Source: a virus (taxonomy: Duplodnaviria > Caudoviricetes). From it: 64,000 nt of DNA. Of the stretch, positions 3,771 to 63,961 are shown piece by piece (within the stretch, counting starts at the first letter, position 1; each line of letters opens with the position of its first letter). Position numbers and translations under genes: made by a program. Below the pieces are notes generated by a model that ran no database searches, had not been told where the DNA came from, and saw nothing but the letters and a program-made list of their open reading frames with translations. Location: positions 18,828 to 82,827 of the IMG/VR virus record IMGVR_UViG_3300032327_001202. One strand, written 5' to 3'.

Positions 3771-3986
3771 ATGAGTACAATTAATGTAAAAATACAAACA
3801 AATAGAATTATTGGCGGTCTTAGAGATTGTATTAAATTATTTTTACAAGAAACTAAAGAAAAAGTATTAACTTTAGAAGTTTTAAAAAAATATAATTTTG
3901 AAGAAAAAGATTTATATGATATGAATCTAACTAAATCAAAAATAAGAGATTTTAAAATTAATAAAATATTAAAATTATGCCAGTAG
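3771..3986 (+). CDS. Small protein, RDxxI-motif family member 1
   Basis: Likely start ATG 3771 (just after the stop at 3768); C-terminus KKYNFEEKDLYDMNLTKSKIRDFKINKIL shared with the four downstream ORFs. Confidence 0.75.
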   Translation: MSTINVKIQTNRIIGGLRDCIKLFLQETKEKVLTLEVLKKYNFEEKDLYDMNLTKSKIRDFKINKILKLCQ

Positions 3987-4216
3987 TTTCATTAGATTTC
4001 GCAAGTTTATATCCTAGACCAATGGGTGATTTTTCTATGGGAGATGATTTTGATAAATCTACTAAGTATATATTAGATAGAAATAAAGATCATGATTATG
4101 TAGATCTTTTATTACTTGAAAAGTATGGGTTGGTAACAAGTAGTTTATTTGATTTTCCTTTTGTTCAAACAAAGGTAAGAGATTATGAGATAAATAAAAT
4201 ATTAGATAGTATATGA
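3977..4216 (+). CDS. Small protein: PolB motif A-like peptide (VVSLDFASLYP) plus RDxxI C-terminal domain
   Basis: N-terminus MPVVSLDFASLYP matches family-B polymerase DxxSLYP; C-terminus KVRDYEINKIL. Confidence 0.8.
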   Translation: MPVVSLDFASLYPRPMGDFSMGDDFDKSTKYILDRNKDHDYVDLLLLEKYGLVTSSLFDFPFVQTKVRDYEINKILDSI

Positions 4217-4467
4217 GTGATATAATCAGACAAGAACTTAAAAAAGTAATAAATAGTTTTTATGGAAGAAATCCCGATATAGAAACTGATTTTACTAAAT
4301 CTATAAAGTTTTTATTATCTAAATTGGATGTTAAGTTTTTAACATACGAGTTTGTAGAAAAGATAAAAGATAAATATGATATAGTATATACGGATTTGTC
4401 TGATTTTTCATTAGTTCAGATAAAGGTAAGGGATTATGAAATAAATAAAATCTTTAAAAGTATCTAA
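4213..4467 (+). CDS. Small protein: PolB motif B-like peptide (KKVINSFYG) plus RDxxI C-terminal domain
   Basis: QELKKVINSFYG matches family-B KxxxNSxYG; C-terminus KVRDYEINKIF. Confidence 0.75.
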   Translation: MSDIIRQELKKVINSFYGRNPDIETDFTKSIKFLLSKLDVKFLTYEFVEKIKDKYDIVYTDLSDFSLVQIKVRDYEINKIFKSI

Positions 4468-4497
4468 ACAAAAAAAATTATTTTTTTATCACTTTAT

Positions 4498-4791
4498 ATG
4501 AAAAGTAAAAGTGATTTAAAGATAAAATATGGTGATAACATCATAGACGAAATAGAAAATAAATTAGCAAAAGAAATATCTGATAGTATAAACAAGGATA
4601 TACTTAATAGTTTTAAGAAACCAAGTAAAATTTATCTACTTTCTTTAGTTGAAAATATTAATAATAAAGAAGGTGAGTTATTTATACTAATGGAAAAATA
4701 TGGTATTATAGAAAATGATTTATATAGCCTTGAAATTGTTAAATCAAAAATAAGAGAATATAATATAGATTTAATCTTAAAAAATAATTAA
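4498..4791 (+). CDS. Small protein: major-capsid-like helix plus RExxI C-terminal domain
   Basis: SDLKIKYGDNIIDEIENKLAKEISDSINKDIL aligns ungapped to this window's MCP segment EDIKANTGMDIVQKMESILVNELSQTISKQII; C-terminus KIREYNIDLIL. Confidence 0.75.
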   Translation: MKSKSDLKIKYGDNIIDEIENKLAKEISDSINKDILNSFKKPSKIYLLSLVENINNKEGELFILMEKYGIIENDLYSLEIVKSKIREYNIDLILKNN

Positions 4792-4807: not shown

Positions 4808-5107
4808 TTGTATATTTGTATGGAAGAAAAAAATATAAATTATAAATCTTATATAGAGGAACAAATAAGTAAAAGTATTTCTTATTCTGATTATATATGT
4901 GATGAGTTAGATAAAACTATAGATTATGCTGATTACTTAAGTGATAAACTTGAAAGTGAAGTATTTTTAGTAAAATTACACACTGATATGAATTTATCAG
5001 ATATAATAGAAATGTATGATTTATCAGAAAAAGATCTTCATAAATTGAGTATAGTTAAGTTAAAAGTAAGAGATTATAAAATAAATTTATTACTAAAACA
5101 AGATTAA
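4808..5107 (+). CDS. Small protein: two scaffold-like 14-aa repeats plus RDxxI C-terminal domain
   Basis: KSISYSDYICDELDKTIDYADYLSDKLE vs protease/scaffold KSIKYSEYVAENLDKNIAYAEYIAENLD (14/28 identical by hand); C-terminus KVRDYKINLLL. Confidence 0.8.
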   Translation: MYICMEEKNINYKSYIEEQISKSISYSDYICDELDKTIDYADYLSDKLESEVFLVKLHTDMNLSDIIEMYDLSEKDLHKLSIVKLKVRDYKINLLLKQD

Positions 5108-5136
5108 AAAATATAATATATACATTACAAATACAT

Positions 5137-5495
5137 GGGGATGAAATGATTTAGATTCATGGAATTAATGGTAGAGATGCAAACATCGGATAATCCTAAC
5201 CCGATTAATAAATTGGATTAAAGTCTAAACGACAAAACAAATACAGTAGCAAGCCGTGAAGAATTAGTAGCCGCTCTACAAAACAACATCTTAAAGGTAA
5301 ACGAAGTAGCTTTTGCTTAATTGACAAAAACAAAAAGGTTTCCAAATAGTTAAAAATCTATTCAAAAATTTTCGGATTTGTTAGGGGTTCGTTAAAAACT
5401 AAATTAGTTTGTTATTTTATAAAAAAGTAACTACGTTTGTAAATGAGTTTCTATGATTAACCAGAGAAGACCCGAATTCGCCTTCGGCATCTCCA
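5137..5495 (+). ncRNA. ssrA: tmRNA (transfer-messenger RNA)
   Basis: 5' GGGGATG pairs with 3' CATCTCC(A), giving a 7-bp acceptor stem with the G3:U70 alanine determinant; T-arm GAC-CCGAA-TTCGCC-TTCGG; internal tag ORF 5225/5228-5320 ending ...VAFA*; terminator immediately downstream; CCA not encoded (CTA). Confidence 0.92.
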
Positions 5496-5500
5496 CTAAT

Positions 5501-5526
5501 AAATACCCCTTGATTGGGGTATTTTT
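5501..5526 (+). terminator. Rho-independent terminator after tmRNA
   Basis: AAATACCCC-TTGATT-GGGGTATTT followed by T-run. Confidence 0.8.
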
Positions 5527-5538
5527 AATTAAAATAAT

Positions 5539-6289: not shown

Positions 6290-6466
6290 ATGAACAAAGA
6301 TAAAATAGATTTATATAATTTTTTAGTAGATAACCCTTACTTTTCTAAGGAATATGTTATGGGAAAGATATTTAATTTTTCTTTTTCTGATATACAATAT
6401 ATCAATAATTTAGAACTAATGGAAAAAAGAAATAAAAAAATAGATGATTTATTAAATGAAGATTAG
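6290..6466 (+). CDS. 58-aa ORF (not in track): portal C-terminal-like peptide plus RNKKIDDLL
   Basis: Manual translation MNKDKIDLYNFLVDNPYFSKEYVMGKIFNFSFSDIQYINNLELMEKRNKKIDDLLNED*; PYFSKEYVMGKIFNFSFSDI aligns with portal PYFHVDFLVDKIMKLTPEEI. Confidence 0.75.
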   Translation: MNKDKIDLYNFLVDNPYFSKEYVMGKIFNFSFSDIQYINNLELMEKRNKKIDDLLNED

Positions 6467-6617
6467 TATTGATGAAATAATAACTTATGATATAGTAGCA
6501 TCTCCAGCACTTGGAAGTGCTAAACTAGTATATGATGAAGAGCTTAAACGAAAGAAAATATTAGAGGATATGGAGAGGAGAAATAAGATTTTAGATGAGT
6601 TATTAAAAGAGGATTAA
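6456..6617 (+). CDS. 53-aa ORF (not in track): prohead-protease-like peptide plus RNKILDELL
   Basis: Manual translation MKISIDEIITYDIVASPALGSAKLVYDEELKRKKILEDMERRNKILDELLKED*; TYDIVASPALGSA vs protease TYDIVADPGFASA (9/13 identical). Confidence 0.8.
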   Translation: MKISIDEIITYDIVASPALGSAKLVYDEELKRKKILEDMERRNKILDELLKED

Positions 6618-9464: not shown

Positions 9465-10568
9465 TTATATTATTTTTTCTTCTAAAATTATTTCTATATT
9501 TTGTTCATAAGAAATTTTTAATAATTCTTTTTTATTTTCCAAAACCCAATTATCTTTTAATTGGTCATTTCTTTTTACAACCTCAAATTGCTCTTCACCA
9601 CCAAAAAATTCTCTTGGCTCATAATGTTGAATACCATTAAACTCTATAAATAACCCCTTTTTAGGTAAATAAAAATCAAATCTATATGTAGAATTACCTA
9701 TTTTTTGTTTATATTCTTTAATGTATTCTATACCTTTTATATCTAACCAATTCTTTATTTGACGTTCTCCTTTTGATGAAGAACAATTAGGACAACCACA
9801 TTTATGATGTATAATATAATTAGGTTTAGCACTCCAAATATAATCACATACTTTACATTTATGTTTTAAATAAAAAAGAGACCCTATATATTTTTCACCA
9901 TCTACTAATTCTATATCATTTGGAAGAAGAGATAAATATTTTGTATGAGAAAATTTTCTACCAGAACAAGATGAACACCCTAATACTATATTAGCTATAT
10001 TTTTAGGCGTAGTGTTAAATTTCTCACCACATTTTAAACATTCAAAATCATGATTTTCTCTAAAATTAGTGTAATTTCCTATTAATTTTATATTCCTTTC
10101 TATTAATAATTCATTAAATTTATTAATATAGTTATATGATTTTTTGCTTAATAAATTTTTATCCTTTTTACATTCACAAATATATTTTGTGATTTGTTTA
10201 GGTGTTTTATTTATTATTTCATTACATATTTTACATTCAAAATTTATATACGTATTAGTGTTAATATAATTATCTACTCTAATAAAATCTAAATCTTTTA
10301 TTCTTAAATCAAATTCTTCATTTGTTATTTTTCTACCTAATGAAGAAAAACTATCGTTTGTTTCTTTTTTACATTCACATAATGTTCGATTATATAATTT
10401 AGGCTTTTTCATACTTTTTTTACCACATAACTTACATTCAAATTCTATTGGTGTTTCTGCATTAATATAATTACCGATTCTTATATAATCAGAATCTTTA
10501 ATTTTTAAATCAAAATCATTATTAGTAAATGCTTTTGGTCCTGACTTTTCGTTCTTTTTTATATACAT
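9465..10568 (-). mobile_element. Free-standing homing-endonuclease-like gene (CxxC repeats plus C-terminal PD-(D/E)xK/Vsr-like domain)
   Basis: Repeated FECKxC units, GCPNCSSSKGE, RFDFYLP..FIEFNGIQH; directly downstream of the capsid gene. Confidence 0.8.
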
Positions 10569-10667: not shown

Positions 10668-12410
10668 TTAGTTAAGGTAGCCATTAGCATCATTAACGTA
10701 GATAGTCATAAATTGTTTTTGTGGGAAGAAACCTAATTCAGCCACAGCATATCTTGATCTTAAAATCATTCTTGGAGCAAATGTTGCTTCTGACATGATT
10801 GAGATAGATTGTGCCATGAGGAATGGCACGAAACAGATACCTGGTTGATCAGGATTGTTTTTACGTCCGATTAAGATTCTGTTGTCATTGTATTTCATGT
10901 AAGGATCTACGTAGATAGTGATATCACCGATTTGACCTACAGGGTACATTTGACCGTTTGTGTTTAATTTAGATTTAAGTGGGTTAATTGTGTAACCTGC
11001 AACATCCATTAAAGCTGCTGCTAATCCACCATTTGTTACCGCATATTGTGCTGGTCCAACACGTCCTTCAGTTGCGATGTAGTTAGAAGCATGTACCATT
11101 TTAGTGATAAGCTTTCTTTGTACAGCGTGTGTAGTTTCACCACCTGGTCCTGCTTGAACATAAAGAGTATCTAAGTCAAATATAGTTTGTCCAGAGATGT
11201 TAGCGTTAGCATTTAAACCTGTGTATAAAGGAGCAGTTTGTCTGTTTATATTACCCATATCAAATACTTTAGCAATAATTTGCTTAGAGATAGTTTGAGA
11301 AAGTTCGTTTACAAGGATTGATTCCATTTTTTGAACGATATCCATACCAGTGTTAGCTTTGATATCTTCAATTTCTGTTCTACGTAATGCAGAACTTACT
11401 TCTACTGTACCAACTGTAATTGATTTAGAAGAAATTTTTGGTCCAATTGCACCTGCATATGTGCTTTCTTCTTCTTGACGAGCCATTGGGTATTGCCCAC
11501 CATTACCATTAAAGTTTGTAACATATCCTGGTAATTGATCTTCAAGAGCAGATACTAAGCTTATGCTTATAGCATTTGAGTTAGTAGACTGTCCAAATAA
11601 GTAGTTAATTTCTGAAACCATTGAACCACCTGCTGTAGCACCTGTAGTTGAAACGTTAAATGAGTTGTTTGCTTGATTTAAGCCATAAACAACACCACCA
11701 CCATATGCACCACCTGCCGCATTTGATTCTTTGTAAGCTCTGAATATAGGCTGTCCATCAATACGAGAGAAACCTAAGAACTCTAAGTAACCAAATTTGT
11801 TAGTTGGTTCAGTTGTAGTACTAGATACTGAAGTTGATGCAGTGAAACCTGTCCAAATTCTTGTACCAAATGCTAAACCACCTTGGTTTTGTTGAATACC
11901 TGCAGTAGTTAAAGCGCTATTAATAGCTGTATTTAATGAAGCACTTAAACCTGTAGAAGTTAAAGTAGCATTCCAAGCAATTTTGAATACTTGAGGTTTT
12001 GTGTTAAAGTTTGAAAGATTTAAATCGTCATATTGAAAATCAACATAAACTAAATCAATCTTTGGACCTGGAGTTGGCTTTACAGCTACTAAATCAAGAC
12101 CAATTGTTTGTGCAGCAATTTTCATAGCTACTGGTAATAGGTTTTGTCCTAAATCACCTGAACCTATGTTTGATGAACCATAGTTTGCACCAATTGTTGT
12201 ACCTGGGTAAGTACCAACTTGTGGAGCTAAAACAGCACCTAAACCACCTGTAGAAGCATTAAGGTAAGCGTTTTCGTTTATTGCATGGTATTCAGCATAT
12301 TCTGCCATCCATGAATATTTTTCTCTGTCCTCTTTGTTAACACCAATGTTTTCTAAAATTGGAGTCCATTTGTTAAGAGCTTTTTGTAAGTCAATTCTAA
12401 CTTGTGACAT
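10668..12410 (-). CDS. gp23: Major capsid protein (T4 gp23-like)
   Basis: KWTPILE N-terminus, EDIKANTGMDI..E..L..E helix, IYVDPY, F.P.M.L.SRYAV C-terminal motif; adjacent to protease and portal. Confidence 0.9.
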   Translation of the reverse strand: MSQVRIDLQKALNKWTPILENIGVNKEDREKYSWMAEYAEYHAINENAYLNASTGGLGAVLAPQVGTYPGTTIGANYGSSNIGSGDLGQNLLPVAMKIAAQTIGLDLVAVKPTPGPKIDLVYVDFQYDDLNLSNFNTKPQVFKIAWNATLTSTGLSASLNTAINSALTTAGIQQNQGGLAFGTRIWTGFTASTSVSSTTTEPTNKFGYLEFLGFSRIDGQPIFRAYKESNAAGGAYGGGVVYGLNQANNSFNVSTTGATAGGSMVSEINYLFGQSTNSNAISISLVSALEDQLPGYVTNFNGNGGQYPMARQEEESTYAGAIGPKISSKSITVGTVEVSSALRRTEIEDIKANTGMDIVQKMESILVNELSQTISKQIIAKVFDMGNINRQTAPLYTGLNANANISGQTIFDLDTLYVQAGPGGETTHAVQRKLITKMVHASNYIATEGRVGPAQYAVTNGGLAAALMDVAGYTINPLKSKLNTNGQMYPVGQIGDITIYVDPYMKYNDNRILIGRKNNPDQPGICFVPFLMAQSISIMSEATFAPRMILRSRYAVAELGFFPQKQFMTIYVNDANGYLN

Positions 12411-12490: not shown

Positions 12491-14695
12491 TTAAATGTTT
12501 TTGAATCTTTCTAAGATTGATTTGAAATCTGAATCAGATAGTTTATCTTCTTGTATTAAACTGTCATGAGAAATCATTTTTTTAGTTGATTCATTCTTTT
12601 TTAAGTTTCTAGTTAACCAAAAATGTTCAATTTTAGCTTCTGAATCCAATTCAGGATATAGTTTAGCTTGTGAAAGAATTGATTTTTTAGAACTTTCATT
12701 TGTTACTTCCCAAATTGATTTTATATTTTCTGGCATCAATCTGATTAGTCTTTCTTCTAATGATTCATTTTTAATAGAAAGTGCTTCTTGTATTAATTTT
12801 ATAACTTCTGAACTTGTGAAATAACTCTTTTCGTTTATGTAAAGTTTTACTTGTTCTTGCTCTTCGTTTGTTAAGCTATAATAGCTATCAACTTGAGACT
12901 TGTTTAAAAATTTTAAGAAATGTAGATCGTTTGTTTCAGAAACTTTACGTTTTCTAGCTTCTTCGATTAATAAATCTATTTTTTTACTTAAATCTGAATC
13001 TGTATTTTTATTTTCTAAGTAGTCTTCGTCTGCTTTAGATACATCTGGTAAACCTTCTAATTTTACTTCTTTACCTAATAATTCATCTTTGAAATCTGCT
13101 TCATTTGGAACCGCAGTATCAACTTTTTGTTCTTCTGGTAATTCAACTTCTGTTAATTCAGTATAATCTAAAGAAACTGGAGTTGCTTCATCAGCTTCAC
13201 CCGCTTTTTCAACACCATCTTCACCATGAAGTTCATCCTCACCACCTTCTAAATAGTTATCTGATTTATTATCAACATCATTTTCACCAAAACCATATTC
13301 TTCTAAAGTAGGAATAAGATTTGATTCATTACTTTCAAATAATTTAGTACCATTAACTTTTTCAGAAATTAAACCTGTATAAGATACAGCTTTATCTAAG
13401 TTTTCAGCAATGTATTGAGAATAAGAAATGTTATCATCAAGGTGTTCTGCTATATATTCAGAATATTTAATATTACCTTCTAAGTTTTCAGCGATATACT
13501 CAGAATAAGCAATATTACCATCTAAGTTTTCAGCTAAATATTCAGCATAAGAAATATTTCTATCTAAGTTTTCAGCTAAGTATTCTGCATAAGAAATATT
13601 CTTATCAACATTCTCAGCAATATATTCAGAATAAGAAATGTTTTTGTCTAAATTTTCAGCGATGTATTCAGAGTAAGAAATGTTTCTATCTAAATTTTCA
13701 GCGATGTATTCAGAATAAGAAATGTTCTTATCTAAGTTTTCAGCAATATATTCTGCATAAGCGATATTTTTATCTAAGTTTTCAGCAACATATTCAGAAT
13801 ATTTAATTGATTTGTTTAAGTTTTCAACTAAATAATCGTTATGTTCGATTAATCTATCAGTTGTATCTTTAAGAGATTTGTTCTCAGAAACAACAACTTG
13901 AATTTTTTCTGCTAAATAATCTAAGTATTTAACAACTTGAGAATTAGTTTTATTTAATTCTTCATAGTAGTTTAAAAGTTTTTCTAATTTAACTGGTTCT
14001 AAATTACCAGATTTAAGAGCACTTTTAACTTCTTTTTTAGTTGCAGCAATTTCATTAACTATATATTTCGAATAGTCTGACAATTGATCTTTCGTTACGA
14101 ATTCATTTTTGTTCATGTTAAATAATTCATTTATTTTTGATTCATTTGATACTTCATATATTCTGAAGTTAGCATCATTTGAATAATTTAAAGACTCATT
14201 TATAGAAGACATTCTCGCAGAAGCAAATCCCGGATCTGCAACTATATCATAAGTAAATAATTTTTTTAGTGATACTGTACCATCAGCTTCTGTAATACCA
14301 GCAGCTCTTGAAGATACAAATATAGGGCAACCATCATCAACTAAAGCCTTAGCTTCTTTTCCCCAATAGGTATTTAATAATTTAATTTGTCCTTCAACTA
14401 CATTTTTTTCTTTAACATAATATGCGGTTTTGATTAAATGGGATGCACGGGATAGTGAAGTGTCAAAGACGTCGGGGTGGTCAAACTCACCATAAACTAC
14501 TCCCATAGTAGAAATCCTGCTATTAAGTTCTTCTAAACAAGGCAAGAATCTTTCAGGAGTATATACTCTTTCATTCCTATTTTTAACCATAAACTCAGTA
14601 AAAGTACCTCCTAAAAGATAATCTTTTCTAGCATCTACACCTTCGTTCATTTTTAAAGGATTTGTATTATTTTCAATGATTAATACTGGCTTCAT
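12491..14695 (-). CDS. gp21: Prohead protease (gp21-like) fused to a scaffold-like region
   Basis: NRNERVY, YGEFDHP, VSSRAAG, TYDIVADPG protease motifs in the N-terminal ~170 aa; coiled-coil, repeat and acidic C-terminal region. Confidence 0.9.
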   Translation of the reverse strand: MKPVLIIENNTNPLKMNEGVDARKDYLLGGTFTEFMVKNRNERVYTPERFLPCLEELNSRISTMGVVYGEFDHPDVFDTSLSRASHLIKTAYYVKEKNVVEGQIKLLNTYWGKEAKALVDDGCPIFVSSRAAGITEADGTVSLKKLFTYDIVADPGFASARMSSINESLNYSNDANFRIYEVSNESKINELFNMNKNEFVTKDQLSDYSKYIVNEIAATKKEVKSALKSGNLEPVKLEKLLNYYEELNKTNSQVVKYLDYLAEKIQVVVSENKSLKDTTDRLIEHNDYLVENLNKSIKYSEYVAENLDKNIAYAEYIAENLDKNISYSEYIAENLDRNISYSEYIAENLDKNISYSEYIAENVDKNISYAEYLAENLDRNISYAEYLAENLDGNIAYSEYIAENLEGNIKYSEYIAEHLDDNISYSQYIAENLDKAVSYTGLISEKVNGTKLFESNESNLIPTLEEYGFGENDVDNKSDNYLEGGEDELHGEDGVEKAGEADEATPVSLDYTELTEVELPEEQKVDTAVPNEADFKDELLGKEVKLEGLPDVSKADEDYLENKNTDSDLSKKIDLLIEEARKRKVSETNDLHFLKFLNKSQVDSYYSLTNEEQEQVKLYINEKSYFTSSEVIKLIQEALSIKNESLEERLIRLMPENIKSIWEVTNESSKKSILSQAKLYPELDSEAKIEHFWLTRNLKKNESTKKMISHDSLIQEDKLSDSDFKSILERFKNI
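13390..13850 (-). repeat. Coding tandem repeat, about 10-11 copies of 42 bp (14 aa: NISYSEYIAENLDK)
   Basis: Directly visible in the translation and DNA of the protease/scaffold gene. Confidence 0.95.
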
Positions 14696-14831: not shown

Positions 14832-15236
14832 ATGTATAAAATTAATTTTGGTGATGAGAAAGTTTTTTTAAATTATTTAAAAGGTTTTGAAAATAAGTAC
14901 CATAAAAGACAAAAAGTATTAAATGAGATTTTAGAAATTAATGATAAAGATGATGAAGCATTAAGCTACTGGGATTTTACTGATAATAGTATAATATATG
15001 GTCAATTTTTTGATAAAAGATATGATAAAGATACATCTTTAAGTAATGTTTCACATTATGTTAAAAACATAGAAAAAATAAATGGGGAATATTTCGCAGA
15101 AATAAAAATATTAACTACTTATTGGGGTATAGCATTATTAGATTTAATTAATGCTGGAATAAAATTTCATTTAGAATGTGTCTATCATACTTATGAAAAT
15201 AAAAAAATAATTAGACTAGATATAAATGATTATTAG
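14832..15236 (+). CDS. Degenerate (likely inactive) paralog of the prohead protease domain, with an RQKVLNEIL motif
   Basis: IIYGQF..DTSLSNVSH..IKILTTYWG..LINAG aligns with protease VVYGEFDHP..DTSLSRASH..IKLLNTYWG..LVDDG; the HP and SSR motifs are absent. Confidence 0.75.
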   Translation: MYKINFGDEKVFLNYLKGFENKYHKRQKVLNEILEINDKDDEALSYWDFTDNSIIYGQFFDKRYDKDTSLSNVSHYVKNIEKINGEYFAEIKILTTYWGIALLDLINAGIKFHLECVYHTYENKKIIRLDINDY

Positions 15237-16394: not shown

Positions 16395-18128
16395 TTAAAA
16401 TTCAAACTCACCACCGCCAGCTTCACCACCAGCTTCAGGTGCAGGAGGATTTTCACCACCAGCTTCAGGTTCCGAAGCAGCTTCACCACCTTCAGGAGGA
16501 GTTTCACCACCCGCTTCAGGAACAGGAGCTTCAGGAGAAGGTCCTGCTTCTCCACCACCGCCTCCACCTTCTGGCATTCCACCTCCAGCAGCAGTTGATG
16601 ATCCAACCCCTTTTGATTTAATCCAATAAGCCTTATTTTCTTCAATTTCTTCGGGAGTTAATTTCATAATTTTATCAACAAGGAAATCAACATGGAAATA
16701 AGGTTGTTCACCATTCATAATTCCTAATAAAGTAGTCATTATGGTAGCTCTAGATTCCATATTTGCTAATTTTTTCCATTCTTCAAAAATCTGATTTGTA
16801 TTGAAAATAACATCAACTTGGTTAAGAAATACTTCATCATGTCTTAATTCAGGAAATTCCATACACATTTGAAGTTTAATTGGTTTAACAATTAGTTCTT
16901 TAATAATTGAACGTAAACGGCTAATAAAATTACCAAAGGTTATTTCATCTCTTGTCATTTCATTTGCAGCAGTCACTAACTGACCCCCACCATTTTCTTT
17001 TTCAAATCTTTGGAAAGGTATCTTACTTGCTCTTTTCAAACAATTCATAAACCAATTTAACATATTATCTTCATTAAGATTATGTCCTTGTGGAGAAATC
17101 AATTCCATATTTGGTGTACCTTGATCACCTTCTGGAAACCATATTTGTTTATTATATGGTAAGTGTTTACTACCACTAATAGTTAATGTACCTAATGAAT
17201 CATCAAATTCTACATCTTCAGAATAATCAGCTATTAATTGTGCAATTTGTTCCTCAGCTCTTTGTTTTGGTAAACCTTTAATAGGTATTGTAAACTTTTG
17301 ATAAACCATCGCATTAACTACGTTAAACATAATTCTTGTTTGTTCCATAATCTTTAATTGATTATATGGTTTAATAAGTCCTTCTACATAAGAAGTTTCG
17401 GAATAATCATGTTGAGTAGAATATGATATAAATACTATTTGCGAATCTAAGAAAATTCTTCTTAAAGCAGGATCTTCTGGATATTGTATCCAAATATTTC
17501 CTATACTTGGTTCATAAGCTGGAACAAGAGTTTCAGGTCTCATTCTATTAAAACTAATAATATTCTTTTTTGTATCATCCCATATAATTTCAACTGCGGC
17601 ATAACCATCAATTAAAAAATCTTTAGTCATATTCCAAGCAGTAATACCATCAGAAAAACCAAAACGACTGTATATTTTTTCAAAAAATTCTTGATATTTA
17701 TCTCGTATATCTTGTGAATAACTATTATTTAAAGGACTTGGAGAACAGAAATCTTTATCTTCATCATACACAATAATTTCATCGGCTAACACAGATACAA
17801 ATTCACGTATTTCATCCTTAATAGAATATTCTCTTAATATTCTTCTTTTATCTGAATACGCTTTATCTAAATAAGGAATTGATTTTTTGTTTAAAACTTG
17901 AGCGACTGCTCTTTGAGAAAAGAAAGCATACATAGAATCCGCTCTTTGAGCAAGAGGGTCTTCATTCATACCGACACCGATAGAATTTCTAAGTATCATA
18001 TCTTCATATTTTAGACCTAACCCTGAAAGGGATCTAAGAAGACGATTAAATATACCTTTATTTTCAACAGCAGAAGGTATAATATTTGGGTTTGTATTGC
18101 TATTTATTGGATTATATGATCCTGGCAT
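16395..18128 (-). CDS. gp20: Portal protein (T4 gp20-like) with Gly/Pro/Glu-rich C-terminal tail
   Basis: 577 aa in the head module; KRASKIPFQR, EMTRDEITFGNFISRLR motifs typical of gp20. Confidence 0.9.
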   Translation of the reverse strand: MPGSYNPINSNTNPNIIPSAVENKGIFNRLLRSLSGLGLKYEDMILRNSIGVGMNEDPLAQRADSMYAFFSQRAVAQVLNKKSIPYLDKAYSDKRRILREYSIKDEIREFVSVLADEIIVYDEDKDFCSPSPLNNSYSQDIRDKYQEFFEKIYSRFGFSDGITAWNMTKDFLIDGYAAVEIIWDDTKKNIISFNRMRPETLVPAYEPSIGNIWIQYPEDPALRRIFLDSQIVFISYSTQHDYSETSYVEGLIKPYNQLKIMEQTRIMFNVVNAMVYQKFTIPIKGLPKQRAEEQIAQLIADYSEDVEFDDSLGTLTISGSKHLPYNKQIWFPEGDQGTPNMELISPQGHNLNEDNMLNWFMNCLKRASKIPFQRFEKENGGGQLVTAANEMTRDEITFGNFISRLRSIIKELIVKPIKLQMCMEFPELRHDEVFLNQVDVIFNTNQIFEEWKKLANMESRATIMTTLLGIMNGEQPYFHVDFLVDKIMKLTPEEIEENKAYWIKSKGVGSSTAAGGGMPEGGGGGGEAGPSPEAPVPEAGGETPPEGGEAASEPEAGGENPPAPEAGGEAGGGEFEF

Positions 18129-18164: not shown

Positions 18165-18692
18165 TTATGCCTTTTCTAGTATTTCAGAAAAGTAGGGCTG
18201 TGTGAAGTTTAATAATTTATTTTTATTACCGTCATAAGATGATATTAAAAAATCAAATAACTCTTGACTTTTTATTAAATATTTATTACTTAATTTATTT
18301 AATTCTTTTTTTCTTAATAAATTATCTATGCGGTCACAAATTTTAATTTCTATAATATCATTTTTTGTTTTAGTATCTATATCTTTAAATCTTTCTTTTA
18401 GAATATCTAAAGATTTATTTTTTGATAAATTTACATCATTATCATAATATGTCAAAAACTCAACTAATTTAATCGAATATGAACTAATCATATTTTTTAG
18501 TACATAAATAGATCCACCTCTTTCTAAAAAGTCATGATATAAGGCCGCATTATGTACATCTTGAGAAACAGTTAATAACTTAATTAAGTTAGCAACTCTT
18601 TTTGAGTGTTTAACTTTTTGTAAAGGCATACTCTTTTTAAGAGTTTTTATGTCTGTTTTAGTTGCTTCAAAAATAAATTCTTTGAATTTCAT
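18165..18692 (-). CDS. HD-domain hydrolase (RelA/SpoT hydrolase, Mesh1-like)
   Basis: HSKRVA, ALYHDFLE, IKICDRIDNL; likely start MKFKEFIFEA at 18692 (CTS-like). Confidence 0.75.
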   Translation of the reverse strand: MKFKEFIFEATKTDIKTLKKSMPLQKVKHSKRVANLIKLLTVSQDVHNAALYHDFLERGGSIYVLKNMISSYSIKLVEFLTYYDNDVNLSKNKSLDILKERFKDIDTKTKNDIIEIKICDRIDNLLRKKELNKLSNKYLIKSQELFDFLISSYDGNKNKLLNFTQPYFSEILEKA

Positions 18693-26434: not shown

Positions 26435-26962
26435 CTATTTTGTAGATTTCATATTACTAATTTTTTTGTTTAGTAAAGTTAATTTATTTTTTATTTCCGT
26501 ATCTATTTTAGTAATTTCCGTTTTTAGTAGGTTAATTTCATTTAATTTATCTGAGATTTTTTTATTTAATTCTGTTATTTCTTCATTTGTACTTTCTTGT
26601 AAGTTAGGATTTTTTTTAATTAAATCTTGTTTTTGGATTATATTATTTTTATAACCTTCTATAGTATCATTTATATTTTGTATTTCTTTTTTCTTACCTG
26701 CAATTTTTGCCCATATTTCTAGTAGTTCATTGGTAAAAGCCATTTTATTATCTTTACCTCTAATAACTAATTTAGCATTAAATAATTTATTTTCTAAATC
26801 TTTTTCATTAATATTAGTTTGGTAAATTTTATCTAAAATAGTTTTTTTGGATTTATATTCCATTACTTGTTTTTCTAAATTTTCCAAACTTTCTAAATTC
26901 TCTAAGTTTTGTACTTCTACTTCTTCTTTAATAAAAGAAGAAAATTTTTTATATATTTTCAT
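26435..26962 (-). CDS. Hypothetical coiled-coil protein with CTS-like leader
   Basis: MKIYKKFSSFIKEE; heptad-rich sequence. Confidence 0.7.
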   Translation of the reverse strand: MKIYKKFSSFIKEEVEVQNLENLESLENLEKQVMEYKSKKTILDKIYQTNINEKDLENKLFNAKLVIRGKDNKMAFTNELLEIWAKIAGKKKEIQNINDTIEGYKNNIIQKQDLIKKNPNLQESTNEEITELNKKISDKLNEINLLKTEITKIDTEIKNKLTLLNKKISNMKSTK

Positions 26963-40815: not shown

Positions 40816-41124
40816 ATGTCAAAAAAATTAACACAAGAAGAATATATAGAAAAAGTTAGGTTTATTCATAATAATAGTTATGAATATTCAAAAACTATCT
40901 ATACTGGTAATAAGAATAAATTAATTATTACTTGTATAGAATATGATGGAAAGCAACATTTCGAATCAATTGAATATTTTGGTAGTGAAGAATCATTAAA
41001 AAAGAAAAAAATAAAAGATTTTATTAAAGATAATTTTTGTTTAAAAAATAAAATTAATCTAATAAGAATACCTTATTATGATTTTGATAAAATTGAAAAA
41101 ATTATAGAAGAAATATGCCAATAG
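40816..41124 (+). pseudogene. Internally deleted homing endonuclease (DUF723-like N-terminus joined to the end of a PD-(D/E)xK domain)
   Basis: ..YTGNKNKLIITC joined directly to IEYDGKQH..LIRIPY; zinc fingers and the catalytic D are missing compared with 9465-10568. Confidence 0.75.
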
Positions 41125-57567: not shown

Positions 57568-57824
57568 ATTTAGCATTTAAAGAAGAAAGAAAAGATAATT
57601 ACTATATCAGAACTTTTAATAAAGATGTTAATATAGAAGATTTAGAATGGCATAGAGATCGTGAGGATCGTTTAATAGAATGTATTGGAGAAACAAATTG
57701 GCAATTTCAAATAGATAATGAATTGCCAATTTGTTTTGATAAACCAATCTTTATTAAAGCAGAGGTTTATCATAGACTTATTAAAGGAGATGGTGAGTTA
57801 GTATTGAAGATTATTAAATATTAG
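57564..57824 (+). CDS. Small cupin-like protein
   Basis: LEWHRDREDR..WQFQ..VYHRLIKG pattern. Confidence 0.55.
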   Translation: MNLAFKEERKDNYYIRTFNKDVNIEDLEWHRDREDRLIECIGETNWQFQIDNELPICFDKPIFIKAEVYHRLIKGDGELVLKIIKY

Positions 57825-58527
57825 CTATGTTATAACTTATAAGACAATCTTTTGGAATGTTTTTAATTGCAAAAACTCCACTAGGTAAATAAGGATCTTT
57901 ATAAAGATAAATTCCTTTTTCTTCTAATTTGTTTCTATCTATTTTAAATAAAACAGGTTTTTTTACATCAAAATCAGGATCATTATATAACCAAGTACAT
58001 TCTTTTTTATCAGTTGCTAAATAAATCCTATCAGGATGATATGCTTTTTTAGACTTACTTTTAGGAACAAGTCCTACTTTTAAGATTTTATCTAAATATT
58101 TCGTATCAGATACGTGATATAGTATATCTGGTAATTTATCATAATCTACTATTGTTCCTGTTTTAGATTCAAACATAAGTGTATAGATTTCATCATCTTC
58201 ATCATCAATATCATTAGAATTTATATATTCTTTTAAATCTAAATCACAATTAGGTATTTTAAAATTACTATCTTTTCTATTAACTATATCGTAAGTATCA
58301 TACATTATTTCAGCTAAATACCAACCATATACATTTTCTATACCAGTTAATATTTCATTATATTTACCAATATGGTTAGGTTTTATACCAAGATAAAAAA
58401 AACCTTCATCTTGTTGATAAAAATCTATACCTTCTTTTAATCCTTTCCTTTTAAGAAATTGTCTTATTTTAGAAAAGGGGTATGTATTAAACCCTTCAAT
58501 AATAAATTGATAATATTTTTTAATCAC
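57814..58527 (-). CDS. ADP-ribosyltransferase-fold (KptA/Tpt1-like C-terminal domain) protein, copy 1
   Basis: LYHVS..ILKVGLVP..YHPDRIYLAT..LFKID..NIP pattern. Confidence 0.65.
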   Translation of the reverse strand: MIKKYYQFIIEGFNTYPFSKIRQFLKRKGLKEGIDFYQQDEGFFYLGIKPNHIGKYNEILTGIENVYGWYLAEIMYDTYDIVNRKDSNFKIPNCDLDLKEYINSNDIDDEDDEIYTLMFESKTGTIVDYDKLPDILYHVSDTKYLDKILKVGLVPKSKSKKAYHPDRIYLATDKKECTWLYNDPDFDVKKPVLFKIDRNKLEEKGIYLYKDPYLPSGVFAIKNIPKDCLISYNIANI

Positions 58528-58532
58528 TATTG

Positions 58533-59237
58533 TTATAATTTTTTATACCCTATAATATATTTAGGGTGTATATTTTCAATTACATAAATACCTCCATCAT
58601 GAAGATTAGAATCTTCATAAAATTTAAAACCTTTTTCTTTTAATCCTTTAGCATCAATTATTAGTATAATAGGTTGTTTTAATTCAAAATCTGAGTGATT
58701 TGCTAATTCCATACAAATATCTTCGCTAGTTCCAAAAAAGATTCTATCAGGATGATAACTAATTTTATCTAAGTGTTTTGGTATAAGTCCTTTTTTCATT
58801 ATTTTAAAATAAAATCTACCATTTGTTATATGATATATCTTATCAGGAATATTTTCATAATCTATGATTCTATCATATTTAGGTTCAAAACATAACCTAC
58901 CTAAAGGTTCTTCATTATTATCTTCTTCCTCATTATCTTCTATATACTCTTCAATAAAATCTTTATAAAAATTAACATCTTTATCTTCTGTAAAATTTTT
59001 TTTATTAACAAATGCTAAATACCATCCATAAAAATTTTCTAATTTAGTAATTATTTGTTTATATAAATATTTATTTGCAGGACGCAATGTTATATAAATT
59101 TTATCTGCACTAAACATACTATAGTAATCATATCTTTGTTTTAATCCTAAACTATCTAAATATTTAGTTACTGTTAAAAAAGGATACGTTTTTAAATTCT
59201 CATTTAAAATAAAGTCATTAAATTTTGTAATAATCAT
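58533..59237 (-). CDS. ADP-ribosyltransferase-fold (KptA/Tpt1-like C-terminal domain) protein, copy 2
   Basis: IYHIT..IMKKGLIP..YHPDRIFFGT..ILIID..NIHP; collinear with copy 1 (ENFYGWYLA / ENVYGWYLA). Confidence 0.65.
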   Translation of the reverse strand: MIITKFNDFILNENLKTYPFLTVTKYLDSLGLKQRYDYYSMFSADKIYITLRPANKYLYKQIITKLENFYGWYLAFVNKKNFTEDKDVNFYKDFIEEYIEDNEEEDNNEEPLGRLCFEPKYDRIIDYENIPDKIYHITNGRFYFKIMKKGLIPKHLDKISYHPDRIFFGTSEDICMELANHSDFELKQPIILIIDAKGLKEKGFKFYEDSNLHDGGIYVIENIHPKYIIGYKKL

Positions 59238-62749: not shown

Positions 62750-63961
62750 ATGATAAAAAAATATTTAGAATTTATCTTAGAATTGAAAAAAGATGATTTA
62801 AAAGGTTCTTATTTACTTAATGATTATGAAAATAATTTAGAATTAGAAAATAAGTTAAAAACTATTATAGATGATAAAATAGTTTTAAACCAAATTCAAA
62901 TCCCAGAAAAAGTGGGGGATAAAAACTTTATTAAAATAAAAGATTTTTTAAAAAATGATAAAGACTTATTAAATATATTTACAAATAATAATAAGGAACC
63001 TCTTAATAAAGAAGGGTTAAAAAAGTGGATTGAAAAATTTATTAAAAACAAATATCTAAATATATCACCAATTAAAAAGGATAAAAAAGAATTTGATATA
63101 GATTTTAAAAAAGTAGATAAAAGTTCCCCAATGTATAAACAAACAGGAGAATTAAATAGAGGTTATGGAGATAATTTTGAAATATATCAAATACTTTTTA
63201 CTAAAGAAATAAATGATCTTATTGAAAAAAATCCAGAATTTAATAAAGCAGATAAATACATGTATCTTACACTAGAAACTGATCATCTTAACAGAGTTCA
63301 TTTTCCAGGAAGACAAGTTAGAAATTGGTATTCTTGGCAACTTAGTGGAATACCAACTACTTTAAGAGGTGATGGGATATCTTTTTTTATTTACAGAGCA
63401 TTTATACATAAGGTAGGTTATTTAACTTCTAGTACAAGTTCATCATCATCAATAAGAAAAATATGGGAAAAAATTATTGTAGATAATAGTGTTAATAGTA
63501 TTATTTGTAATCATGATATTATTGTATTTTCTAAAAATTATACAGGTGATATTGATAATATAGTTAAAAAGTTCTTAAATTCTAAAACATGTACCAAAAA
63601 TAAATTAAAAATAGATACTGAATTAGAAAATAAATTAGGAGATTGGTATAAAGAATGGAAAAGAAAACTTGTTGATTCGTCTTATTATTTAAATAATTTA
63701 AATAAATTAATCAATAAATATAAAAATTATAAAATAACTGATGAAGATATAAAAGATACAAAAAGTAAAAAATTAATTTTTATTGTTTATTTACCAAAAA
63801 ATAAACAAATAGGTGTTCTTAACGAAATAAGTACAAAAGAAGATAAATCATTATTTTATAGTATTCAATATTTAGATTCAGGTAAATATTATAATGATGA
63901 ATTTAATGAAATAGATGAGACAAGTTTTAATATCTTAGAAAAGAAAAAAATCAATTTGTAA
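62750..63961 (+). CDS. Hypothetical protein with CTS-like leader
   Basis: 403 aa; MIKKYLEFILE. Confidence 0.75.
   Translation: MIKKYLEFILELKKDDLKGSYLLNDYENNLELENKLKTIIDDKIVLNQIQIPEKVGDKNFIKIKDFLKNDKDLLNIFTNNNKEPLNKEGLKKWIEKFIKNKYLNISPIKKDKKEFDIDFKKVDKSSPMYKQTGELNRGYGDNFEIYQILFTKEINDLIEKNPEFNKADKYMYLTLETDHLNRVHFPGRQVRNWYSWQLSGIPTTLRGDGISFFIYRAFIHKVGYLTSSTSSSSSIRKIWEKIIVDNSVNSIICNHDIIVFSKNYTGDIDNIVKKFLNSKTCTKNKLKIDTELENKLGDWYKEWKRKLVDSSYYLNNLNKLINKYKNYKITDEDIKDTKSKKLIFIVYLPKNKQIGVLNEISTKEDKSLFYSIQYLDSGKYYNDEFNEIDETSFNILEKKKINL

Follow-up and report, generated by a model that had tools for sequence, protein, structure and literature searches.

A phage mini-protein pairs scaffold-like N-terminal units with a conserved C-terminal domain and may be carried into the prohead core

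The viral DNA analysed here, a stretch of 64,000 nucleotides (the window), encodes a mini-protein that begins with copies of the 14-residue unit of the phage's own scaffold and ends in a conserved domain. By analogy with the capsid-targeting sequence (CTS) of bacteriophage T4, we tentatively favour the reading that it is a small prohead-core protein, taken into the prohead core by a scaffold-mimicking leader; we consider this possible, with slightly less than even confidence. Association with the scaffold is its best-supported element, because the unit matches the T4 CTS, which works by co-assembly with the scaffolding core, the units are N-terminal, and the packing positions are retained. The sequence-only reading had likewise proposed co-assembly with the scaffold. 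That part of the reading is supported by analogy.

The window lies within an 82.8-kb contig of 24.7% G+C, and the program-made list of its open reading frames includes an ORF at 4808–5107. Seven of eight aligned proteins, namely the window protein and its seven orthologs, begin MEEKNI (six of the orthologs start MEEKN). Because of this shared opening, the ATG at 4820, and not the upstream TTG at 4808, is almost certainly the true start. The gene then spans 4820–5107 on the plus strand and encodes 95 residues plus a stop codon, an assignment based on the ORF list, the seven orthologs and conserved synteny.

Alignment with the scaffold places three consecutive 14-residue units (NINYKSYIEEQISK, SISYSDYICDELDK and TIDYADYLSDKLES) at residues 5–46 (4832–4957, plus strand). 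They start at residue 5 of the ATG-4820 product, which is the extreme N-terminus, as T4-type CTS proteins require. The conserved C-terminal domain follows (residues 47–95; 4958–5104, plus strand) and closes with the helix K-x-K-V-R-D-Y-x-I-N-x-L-L. It is delimited by alignments, profile searches, dN/dS and model confidence. An AlphaFold model built from a 69-sequence alignment reaches pLDDT 92–97 in this domain, where it predicts a long helix besides three short ones. Residues 8–53 are predicted as a single long helix at just 60–71, a value that counts against the use of the N-terminal segment as a scaffold-binding leader. Directly downstream of the gene, a 430-nt spacer (5108–5538) is conserved in relatives. 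ARAGORN detected no tmRNA or tRNA in it and Rfam gave nothing at E-values up to 0.1; it contains one terminator-like hairpin on the minus strand (5487–5472).

The similarity of these units to the scaffold repeat is real and in register, as judged from alignment E-values, shuffled sequences and shared invariant positions. With composition adjustment, BLASTP of the mini-protein against the scaffold gives a pairwise E-value of 4e-12, with 44–47% identity over 45 residues in seven registers, and a search of the contig's full set of 245 ORFs recovers the scaffold at E 2e-10. Smith-Waterman alignment scores 130, compared with 47 ± 7 (maximum 82) in 2000 shuffles (z 11.6) and only 49 for the second-best contig ORF. 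Chance or composition as the source of the similarity is ruled out by the shuffle test and the composition-adjusted BLAST. The 14-residue unit I-x-Y-x-E-Y-[IL]-x-E-x-L-D-K-N is found in register in the mini-protein. Across 13 units from five orthologs, five hydrophobic positions (I, Y, Y, I/L and L/I/V) are essentially invariant and other positions vary; these are the same five positions that are invariant in the scaffold units.

The sequence-only reading had described two copies of the repeat at 14/28 identity. That figure is reproduced for the 28-mer at 4871–4954, which is 14/28 identical in one register and 15/28 in the best. The copies themselves also stand, but they number three rather than two, and together they match the scaffold at 21 of 43 residues. 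A profile of the 14-residue unit, too short for a sensitive search, found nothing beyond the mini-protein among all ORFs, and the N-terminal MAEYAEYHA of the capsid protein was not significant against it. Residues 167–249 of T4 gp22 align weakly to the mini-protein (E 0.003).

The window contains a T4-type head module, with a gp23-like capsid protein, an S77-like protease and a portal protein. The scaffold is part of a 734-residue protein (12491–14695, minus strand) in which a gp21-like prohead protease (residues 1–230) is fused to a gp22-like scaffold. The protease part matches the head maturation protease family phrog_207 (E 5e-29) and, weakly, Peptidase_S77. The His and Ser motifs correspond in its alignment with T4 gp21 (E 2e-4). 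LR756502 encodes an ortholog with a full-length identity of 66%. Eleven tandem 14-residue units occupy residues 283–436 (13388–13849, minus strand), with the consensus N-I-S-Y-S-E-Y-I-A-E-N-L-D-K, the core Y-[SA]-E-Y-[IL]-A-E and an [LI]-x-E site in each. This repeat lies about 8.4 kb from the mini-gene, a little closer than the 9 kb first given. The mini-gene itself is 7.4 kb from the protease-scaffold gene, on the opposite strand, and is not placed between the portal and protease genes. Its position neither adjacent to the head genes nor on their strand counts against a role as a prohead-core protein.

The gp23-like capsid protein (10668–12410, minus strand) is 50–62% identical to those of the 634–735-kb genomes LR745206 and LR756501-4, and is more distantly related to the capsid proteins of Lak phages. 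The Mahaphage clade of Al-Shayeb et al., whose predicted hosts are Bacteroidetes, consists of genomes of these sizes (PMC7162821). Compared with its orthologs, the capsid protein is 84–88% identical, with indels, whereas neighbouring genes are 95–99% identical, a pattern suggesting that it contains a region of variable insertions. The portal protein (16395–18128, minus strand) ends in a low-complexity tail of about 70 residues rich in Gly, Glu, Ala and Pro. Beside the capsid gene, a 367-residue ORF (9465–10568, minus strand) shares an endonuclease-like segment (IEYDGKQH...) with a 102-residue ORF at 40816–41124 (plus strand; E 4e-11). The larger ORF is missing from that position in two related loci, L002 and L007, and so probably encodes a mobile endonuclease of the homing type.

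The link to capsid targeting comes from the core of the scaffold unit. In T4, the CTS is a peptide of about 10 residues, MKTYQEFIAE, which is cleaved off and which directs IPII and IPIII, or whatever protein it is fused to, into the capsid or scaffolding core (PMC8442874; PMC7411985). The core Y-[SA]-E-Y-[IL]-A-E closely resembles this peptide. A pattern derived from the window's scaffold unit, Y-x-E-[FY]-hydrophobic-A-E, was back-translated and compared with the 169-kb T4 genome. It has two matches only, at residues 4–10 of ipII and ipIII, and its reversed control has none.

A related motif recurs as a leader in LR745206 (635 kb), where Y-x-E-[FY]-I-x-E has 10 matches, versus one for the control. 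Four fall in the scaffold and one in a scaffold-like mini-ORF. The five others all lie 5–8 residues past the first Met of ORFs (MKLFKYIEFINE, ...RKIDTYIEFINE, MRLKKYLEFIKE, MILLKYNEYITE and MKIRKYIEFITE), whose downstream sequences look unrelated by eye. The scaffold-like mini-ORF (L001:3917-4168; 460.4–460.7 kb) starts MNYEDYIAES and has four scaffold-like units. It ends in a basic tail, SRKKKIKNLFN, common to the preceding small ORF, without the full C-terminal domain.

Similar leaders occur in the window. They are MIKKYLEFILE at the start of a 403-residue protein (62750–62782, plus strand), MIKKYYQFIIE at the start of a 237-residue protein with weak Tpt1/KptA similarity (58495–58527, minus strand), and MKFKEFIFE at an internal Met of an ORF beside the portal gene (18666–18692, minus strand). 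A weaker leader, MKIYKKFSSFIKEE, starts another larger protein (26435–26962, minus strand). The proteins that carry these leaders are candidates for packaging into the head. The 237-residue protein belongs to a pair of tandem paralogs (57814–58527 and 58533–59237, minus strand) with below-threshold similarity to the RNA 2'-phosphotransferase Tpt1/KptA (E 0.048 and 4.8e-4). The leader on one of them recalls Alt of T4, which is a packaged enzyme.

The protease gp21 of T4 cuts after Glu, with [LI]-x-E as its cleavage specificity. From its sequence, the scaffold of the window's clade looks like a tandem array of CTS-like units, each with such a site. Y-x-x-Y-I-x-E describes unit 1 of the mini-protein (NYKSYIEE), whose closing I-E-E is a candidate site for cleavage of the T4 type. 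At the presumed cut position, units 2 and 3 have Asp in place of the Glu of the scaffold units, a substitution that counts against the prohead-core reading.

These features suggest how the mini-protein could be delivered. Its one to four N-terminal units would act as a capsid-targeting leader, forming an amphipathic helix whose packing positions are those of the scaffold's 14-residue units. During head assembly, this helix and the repeat region of the protease-scaffold protein would assemble together, and the C-terminal domain would thereby be carried into the prohead, where we infer a role for it. The scaffold-fused gp21-type protease would then probably cut after unit 1, at I-E-E, as it probably chops the scaffold units at I-A-E.

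The parallel with IPII and IPIII of T4 includes an N-terminal peptide that partly recalls the core Y-x-E-[FY]-I-x-E ending in an [LI]-x-E site; the scaffold unit fits the pattern strictly, and unit 1 of the mini-protein more loosely. It also includes a tag found on proteins that otherwise look unrelated in a phage with a T4-type head module (gp23-like capsid protein and S77-like protease). The T4 tag is removed by gp21, and the window phage too encodes a gp21/S77-type prohead protease and a scaffolding core. There are also differences. T4 uses one tag of about 10 residues, whereas the mini-protein has one to four full 14-residue scaffold units. Its leader varies and the rest is conserved, and its later units have Asp for Glu at the presumed cut position. 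Compared with the gp22-type scaffold of T4, the mini-protein has units homologous to the repeat of the window phage's gp22-like region. However, only one to four of them are present, joined to an unrelated C-terminal domain, and the remainder of the scaffold is missing.

A search of 5.8 billion proteins returned seven full-length orthologs at 59–72% identity. The mini-gene ORF is intact at every locus and present on many independent contigs, and the surrounding synteny is conserved in the four loci that were retrieved (L002, L004, L006 and L007). Constraint within the protein is uneven. The last approximately 48 residues are nearly invariant among orthologs, and the C-terminal domain, the most constrained part of the protein, is under purifying selection. 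Its dN/dS is 0.15–0.21 against L002, the most distant locus (dS about 0.8–1.1), a figure that covers this domain, as the repeat part is unalignable. The repeat part shows strong sequence divergence and ranges from one recognisable unit (P0007) to four (P0002). At least one unit is nevertheless kept in every ortholog while copy number drifts, which fits a tag for which a single unit of about 10 residues suffices.

The divergence is sharply local. DNA of the window and L004 is 95–96% identical on both flanks, and the alignment breaks exactly at 4848–4943. Across 15 kb the mini-protein is the most diverged gene, at 62% identity compared with 90–99% for most neighbours. Repeat instability alone is insufficient to explain this variation, because the scaffold units stay conserved position by position in L002 and L004, which with the window make up the three genomes that include the scaffold gene. 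One unit of the L002 mini-gene, ILYSEYISEYVDKN, is identical to unit 5 of the L002 scaffold at 37 of 42 nucleotides. The two share a unique Val and a rare GAG codon (11% of Glu codons), which suggests that a unit is occasionally copied from the scaffold gene into the mini-gene. A comparison of co-variation between mini-gene units and their own scaffolds has no power, as the three scaffolds are nearly identical.

Together with the sequence comparison, these data bear on whether the gene is simply non-functional debris, either part of a scaffold gene duplicate or a resemblance produced by chance from an AT-rich composition dominated by N, I, K, Y, S, D and E. The 24.7% G+C genome and the poorly conserved repeat part would suit such an origin, as would the L002 unit that looks freshly copied from scaffold unit 5. 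We regard it as very improbable, given the composition-adjusted E-value of 4e-12 and the shuffle z of 11.6, the intact ORF at all loci on many independent contigs, the low dN/dS of the C-terminal domain, and the recurrence of the mini-protein architecture in distant lineages. Debris or chance is already largely refuted and essentially excluded.

The variability of the units also bears on an active role in assembly. The sequence-only reading proposed that the repeat fragment could cap the scaffold coiled coil and affect prohead size or poison foreign proheads. As an active regulator of this kind, the repeat stretch would cap or terminate growing scaffold helical bundles and so tune core size or timing, or act as a dominant-negative poison of related phages' proheads. 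The mini-protein does have the scaffold's unit and packing positions in a region predicted to be helical, and very large heads are needed in this group, whose closest relatives have genomes of 634–735 kb. In T4, gp67 and gp68 are small proteins of the scaffolding core that the prohead protease degrades (PMC9958956; PMC7411985), so small proteins can take part in a core. However, a cap or ruler would be expected to be conserved along with an invariant scaffold, and here the units number one to four and their sequence degenerates in near-identical phages. The model also gives no role to the conserved C-terminal domain. BLASTP of the mini-protein against T4 gp67, gp68, gp21 and gp22, at E-values up to 10, gave no match to gp67 or gp68. 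It further differs from both in that its gene lies away from the portal and protease genes and its C-terminal domain, predicted to be folded, is common to paralogs. We consider such a regulator improbable, because phages with identical scaffolds should not differ in a ruler or cap.

The C-terminal domain, on which the sequence-only reading is silent, extends well beyond this gene. It comprises about 45 residues of the form ...KY.I...DL.....VK.K.RD..I..IL, located at the extreme C-terminus of proteins shorter than 150 residues, a description that the mini-protein fits. A profile search of 1.84 billion representative sequences identified 72 clusters, nearly all of 55–140 residues with the domain at the very C-terminus. 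On this sequence evidence, the domain defines an undescribed family, absent from Pfam, of about 70 mini-protein clusters with swappable N-terminal pieces. These pieces are modular and recurrent, and include scaffold-like units, a gp23 helix, motif A of family-B DNA polymerase (PolB), an MPLPHY type and collagen-like repeats. Scaffold-like units are found in members P0017, P0018, P0029, P0063 and P0074. Distant members pair two to three such units with the domain, and P0063 and P0029 match the window's scaffold at E 5e-15 and 1e-8, respectively. Pfam Gp23 matches family members with a best E-value of 1.8e-6.

Searches for relatives of the domain gave few leads. Foldseek against the PDB found nothing significant (best E 1.8), with many helix-turn-helix proteins among the weak rows. 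A wide structure search (VIA) gave a best Z of 5.2, with all matches to long helices, and hmmsearch against PDB sequences gave a best E of 1.1. Pfam showed no family match for the domain, only scattered weak helix-turn-helix or winged-helix matches in single members (E 0.0014 or weaker). An ESM Atlas search with the mini-protein gave no usable feature match, and the Atlas's own model was poor. An origin of the domain from the scaffold C-terminus or from T4 gp22 was rejected, with hhalign probabilities of 0.2% and 0.1%. A tree of the domain, poorly resolved over 44 columns, places the window-type scaffold members in one clade and other scaffold-type members elsewhere; a single clade of all scaffold-type members is not rejected by the AU test (p 0.27). 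In LR745206 the full domain is rare, with one good match and two tail-only matches.

Within the window, the mini-gene is preceded by four tandem paralogs (3771–4791, plus strand), identified by BLASTP and alignments, which share the C-terminal domain and differ in their N-terminal modules. The N-termini of the paralogs at 3977–4216 and 4213–4467 (plus strand) resemble PolB motif A (SLDFASLYP) and motif B (KKVINSFYG); the analysis of the contig, which was not aimed at polymerases, came across no polymerase gene that could be their parent. That of the paralog at 4498–4791 (plus strand) resembles the gp23 helix of the capsid protein at 10668–12410 (BLASTP E 2e-4; Pfam Gp23 E 0.003; phrog_138 E 0.0026). 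Relatives carry a sixth family member, of the MPLPHY type and 70–73 residues long (L002:9427-9639, L004:9420-9641 and L006:9430-9642), between the orthologs of 4213–4467 and 4498–4791; the window is without it and has a 30-nt spacer there. The tail motif R-[DENQ]-x-x-[IL]-[DNS]-x-[ILF]-[LF], which was defined after the data had been inspected, occurs 12 times in contig ORFs compared with 0.3 expected, and eight times at C-termini compared with 0.007 expected. Two overlapping micro-ORFs at 6456–6617 and 6290–6466 (plus strand) have the tail helix only (RNKILDELL and RNKKIDDLL), and the first also copies protease residues 141–162 (E 4e-6). A 134-residue ORF (14832–15236, plus strand), divergent beside the protease-scaffold gene, is like protease residues 66–125 (E 6e-5) and has RQKVLNEIL near its N-terminus.

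This repertoire raises the possibility that the mini-proteins form a library in which short stretches copied from essential phage proteins are presented on the C-terminal domain as a shared handle. The scaffold copy would then be a self-mimic decoy or bait that diverts a factor of host defence or of a competing phage, and its fast change would reflect an arms race. We consider this explanation unlikely, though a real contender. Among the pieces so presented would be segments of scaffold, capsid, portal, protease, PolB and collagen-like fibre. One and the same domain bears N-modules like PolB motifs A and B, the gp23 helix, collagen repeats and others, and the excess of tail motifs is consistent with such a set. 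The mini-protein reproduces a segment of a larger protein from its own genome, the scaffold, and no segment of these near-identical genomes has diverged more than this repeat module, while its supposed partner is unchanged.

A comparable proposal exists for Bodo saltans virus, whose ankyrin-repeat ORFs with 5' fragments of essential genes are proposed decoys (PMC5871332). Those ORFs, like eukaryotic microProteins, resemble the present arrangement in joining a short copy of a larger essential protein of the same genome to a constant module in tandem paralog arrays. They differ in that the constant module here is an unrelated helical domain of 45 residues in a bacteriophage, and the decoy role is hypothetical in both cases. 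Several points argue against the explanation. No defence factor or reader is known, and short linear copies of buried catalytic motifs are unlikely mimics of folded targets. The variability could equally reflect relaxed constraint on a redundant repeat; the dN/dS figure is limited to the C-terminal domain. The CTS match, moreover, explains the scaffold-type member more simply.

The reading of the mini-protein as a prohead-core protein has difficulties that keep the decoy model alive, because the address is variable, units 2 and 3 have Asp, and paralogs bear PolB-like motifs. The pattern of constraint differs from that of the T4 internal proteins, since here the sequences show a fast-evolving presumed address joined to a conserved presumed cargo, with an almost invariant scaffold as its partner. 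The paralogs join the C-terminal domain to PolB-like motifs without an obvious prohead role, and the mechanism may differ across the family. A broader and equally doubtful version of the decoy model is that huge phages keep, as tandem mini-genes, a library of self-mimic peptides tagged with a common C-terminal domain that some partner would read, with the scaffold copy under diversifying selection as a decoy for host defence or a dominant-negative weapon against co-infecting relatives, and not as a passive head component.

If the mini-protein is indeed carried into the prohead core by its leader, this would support the view that the T4-type capsid-targeting tag is a detached scaffold unit and that targeting occurs by homotypic co-assembly. 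The scaffold of these huge phages would be a tandem array of tag units, and cargo proteins would carry one to four of them. Recognition of the T4 tag and its scaffolding-core partner would become testable with simple peptides from an uncultured clade, and phage engineering could gain a packaging tag of several units that can be tuned. The C-terminal domain is the hallmark of an undescribed mini-protein family with N-terminal modules that copy essential phage proteins. Identifying its reader could uncover a further level of regulation or conflict among the largest phages known.
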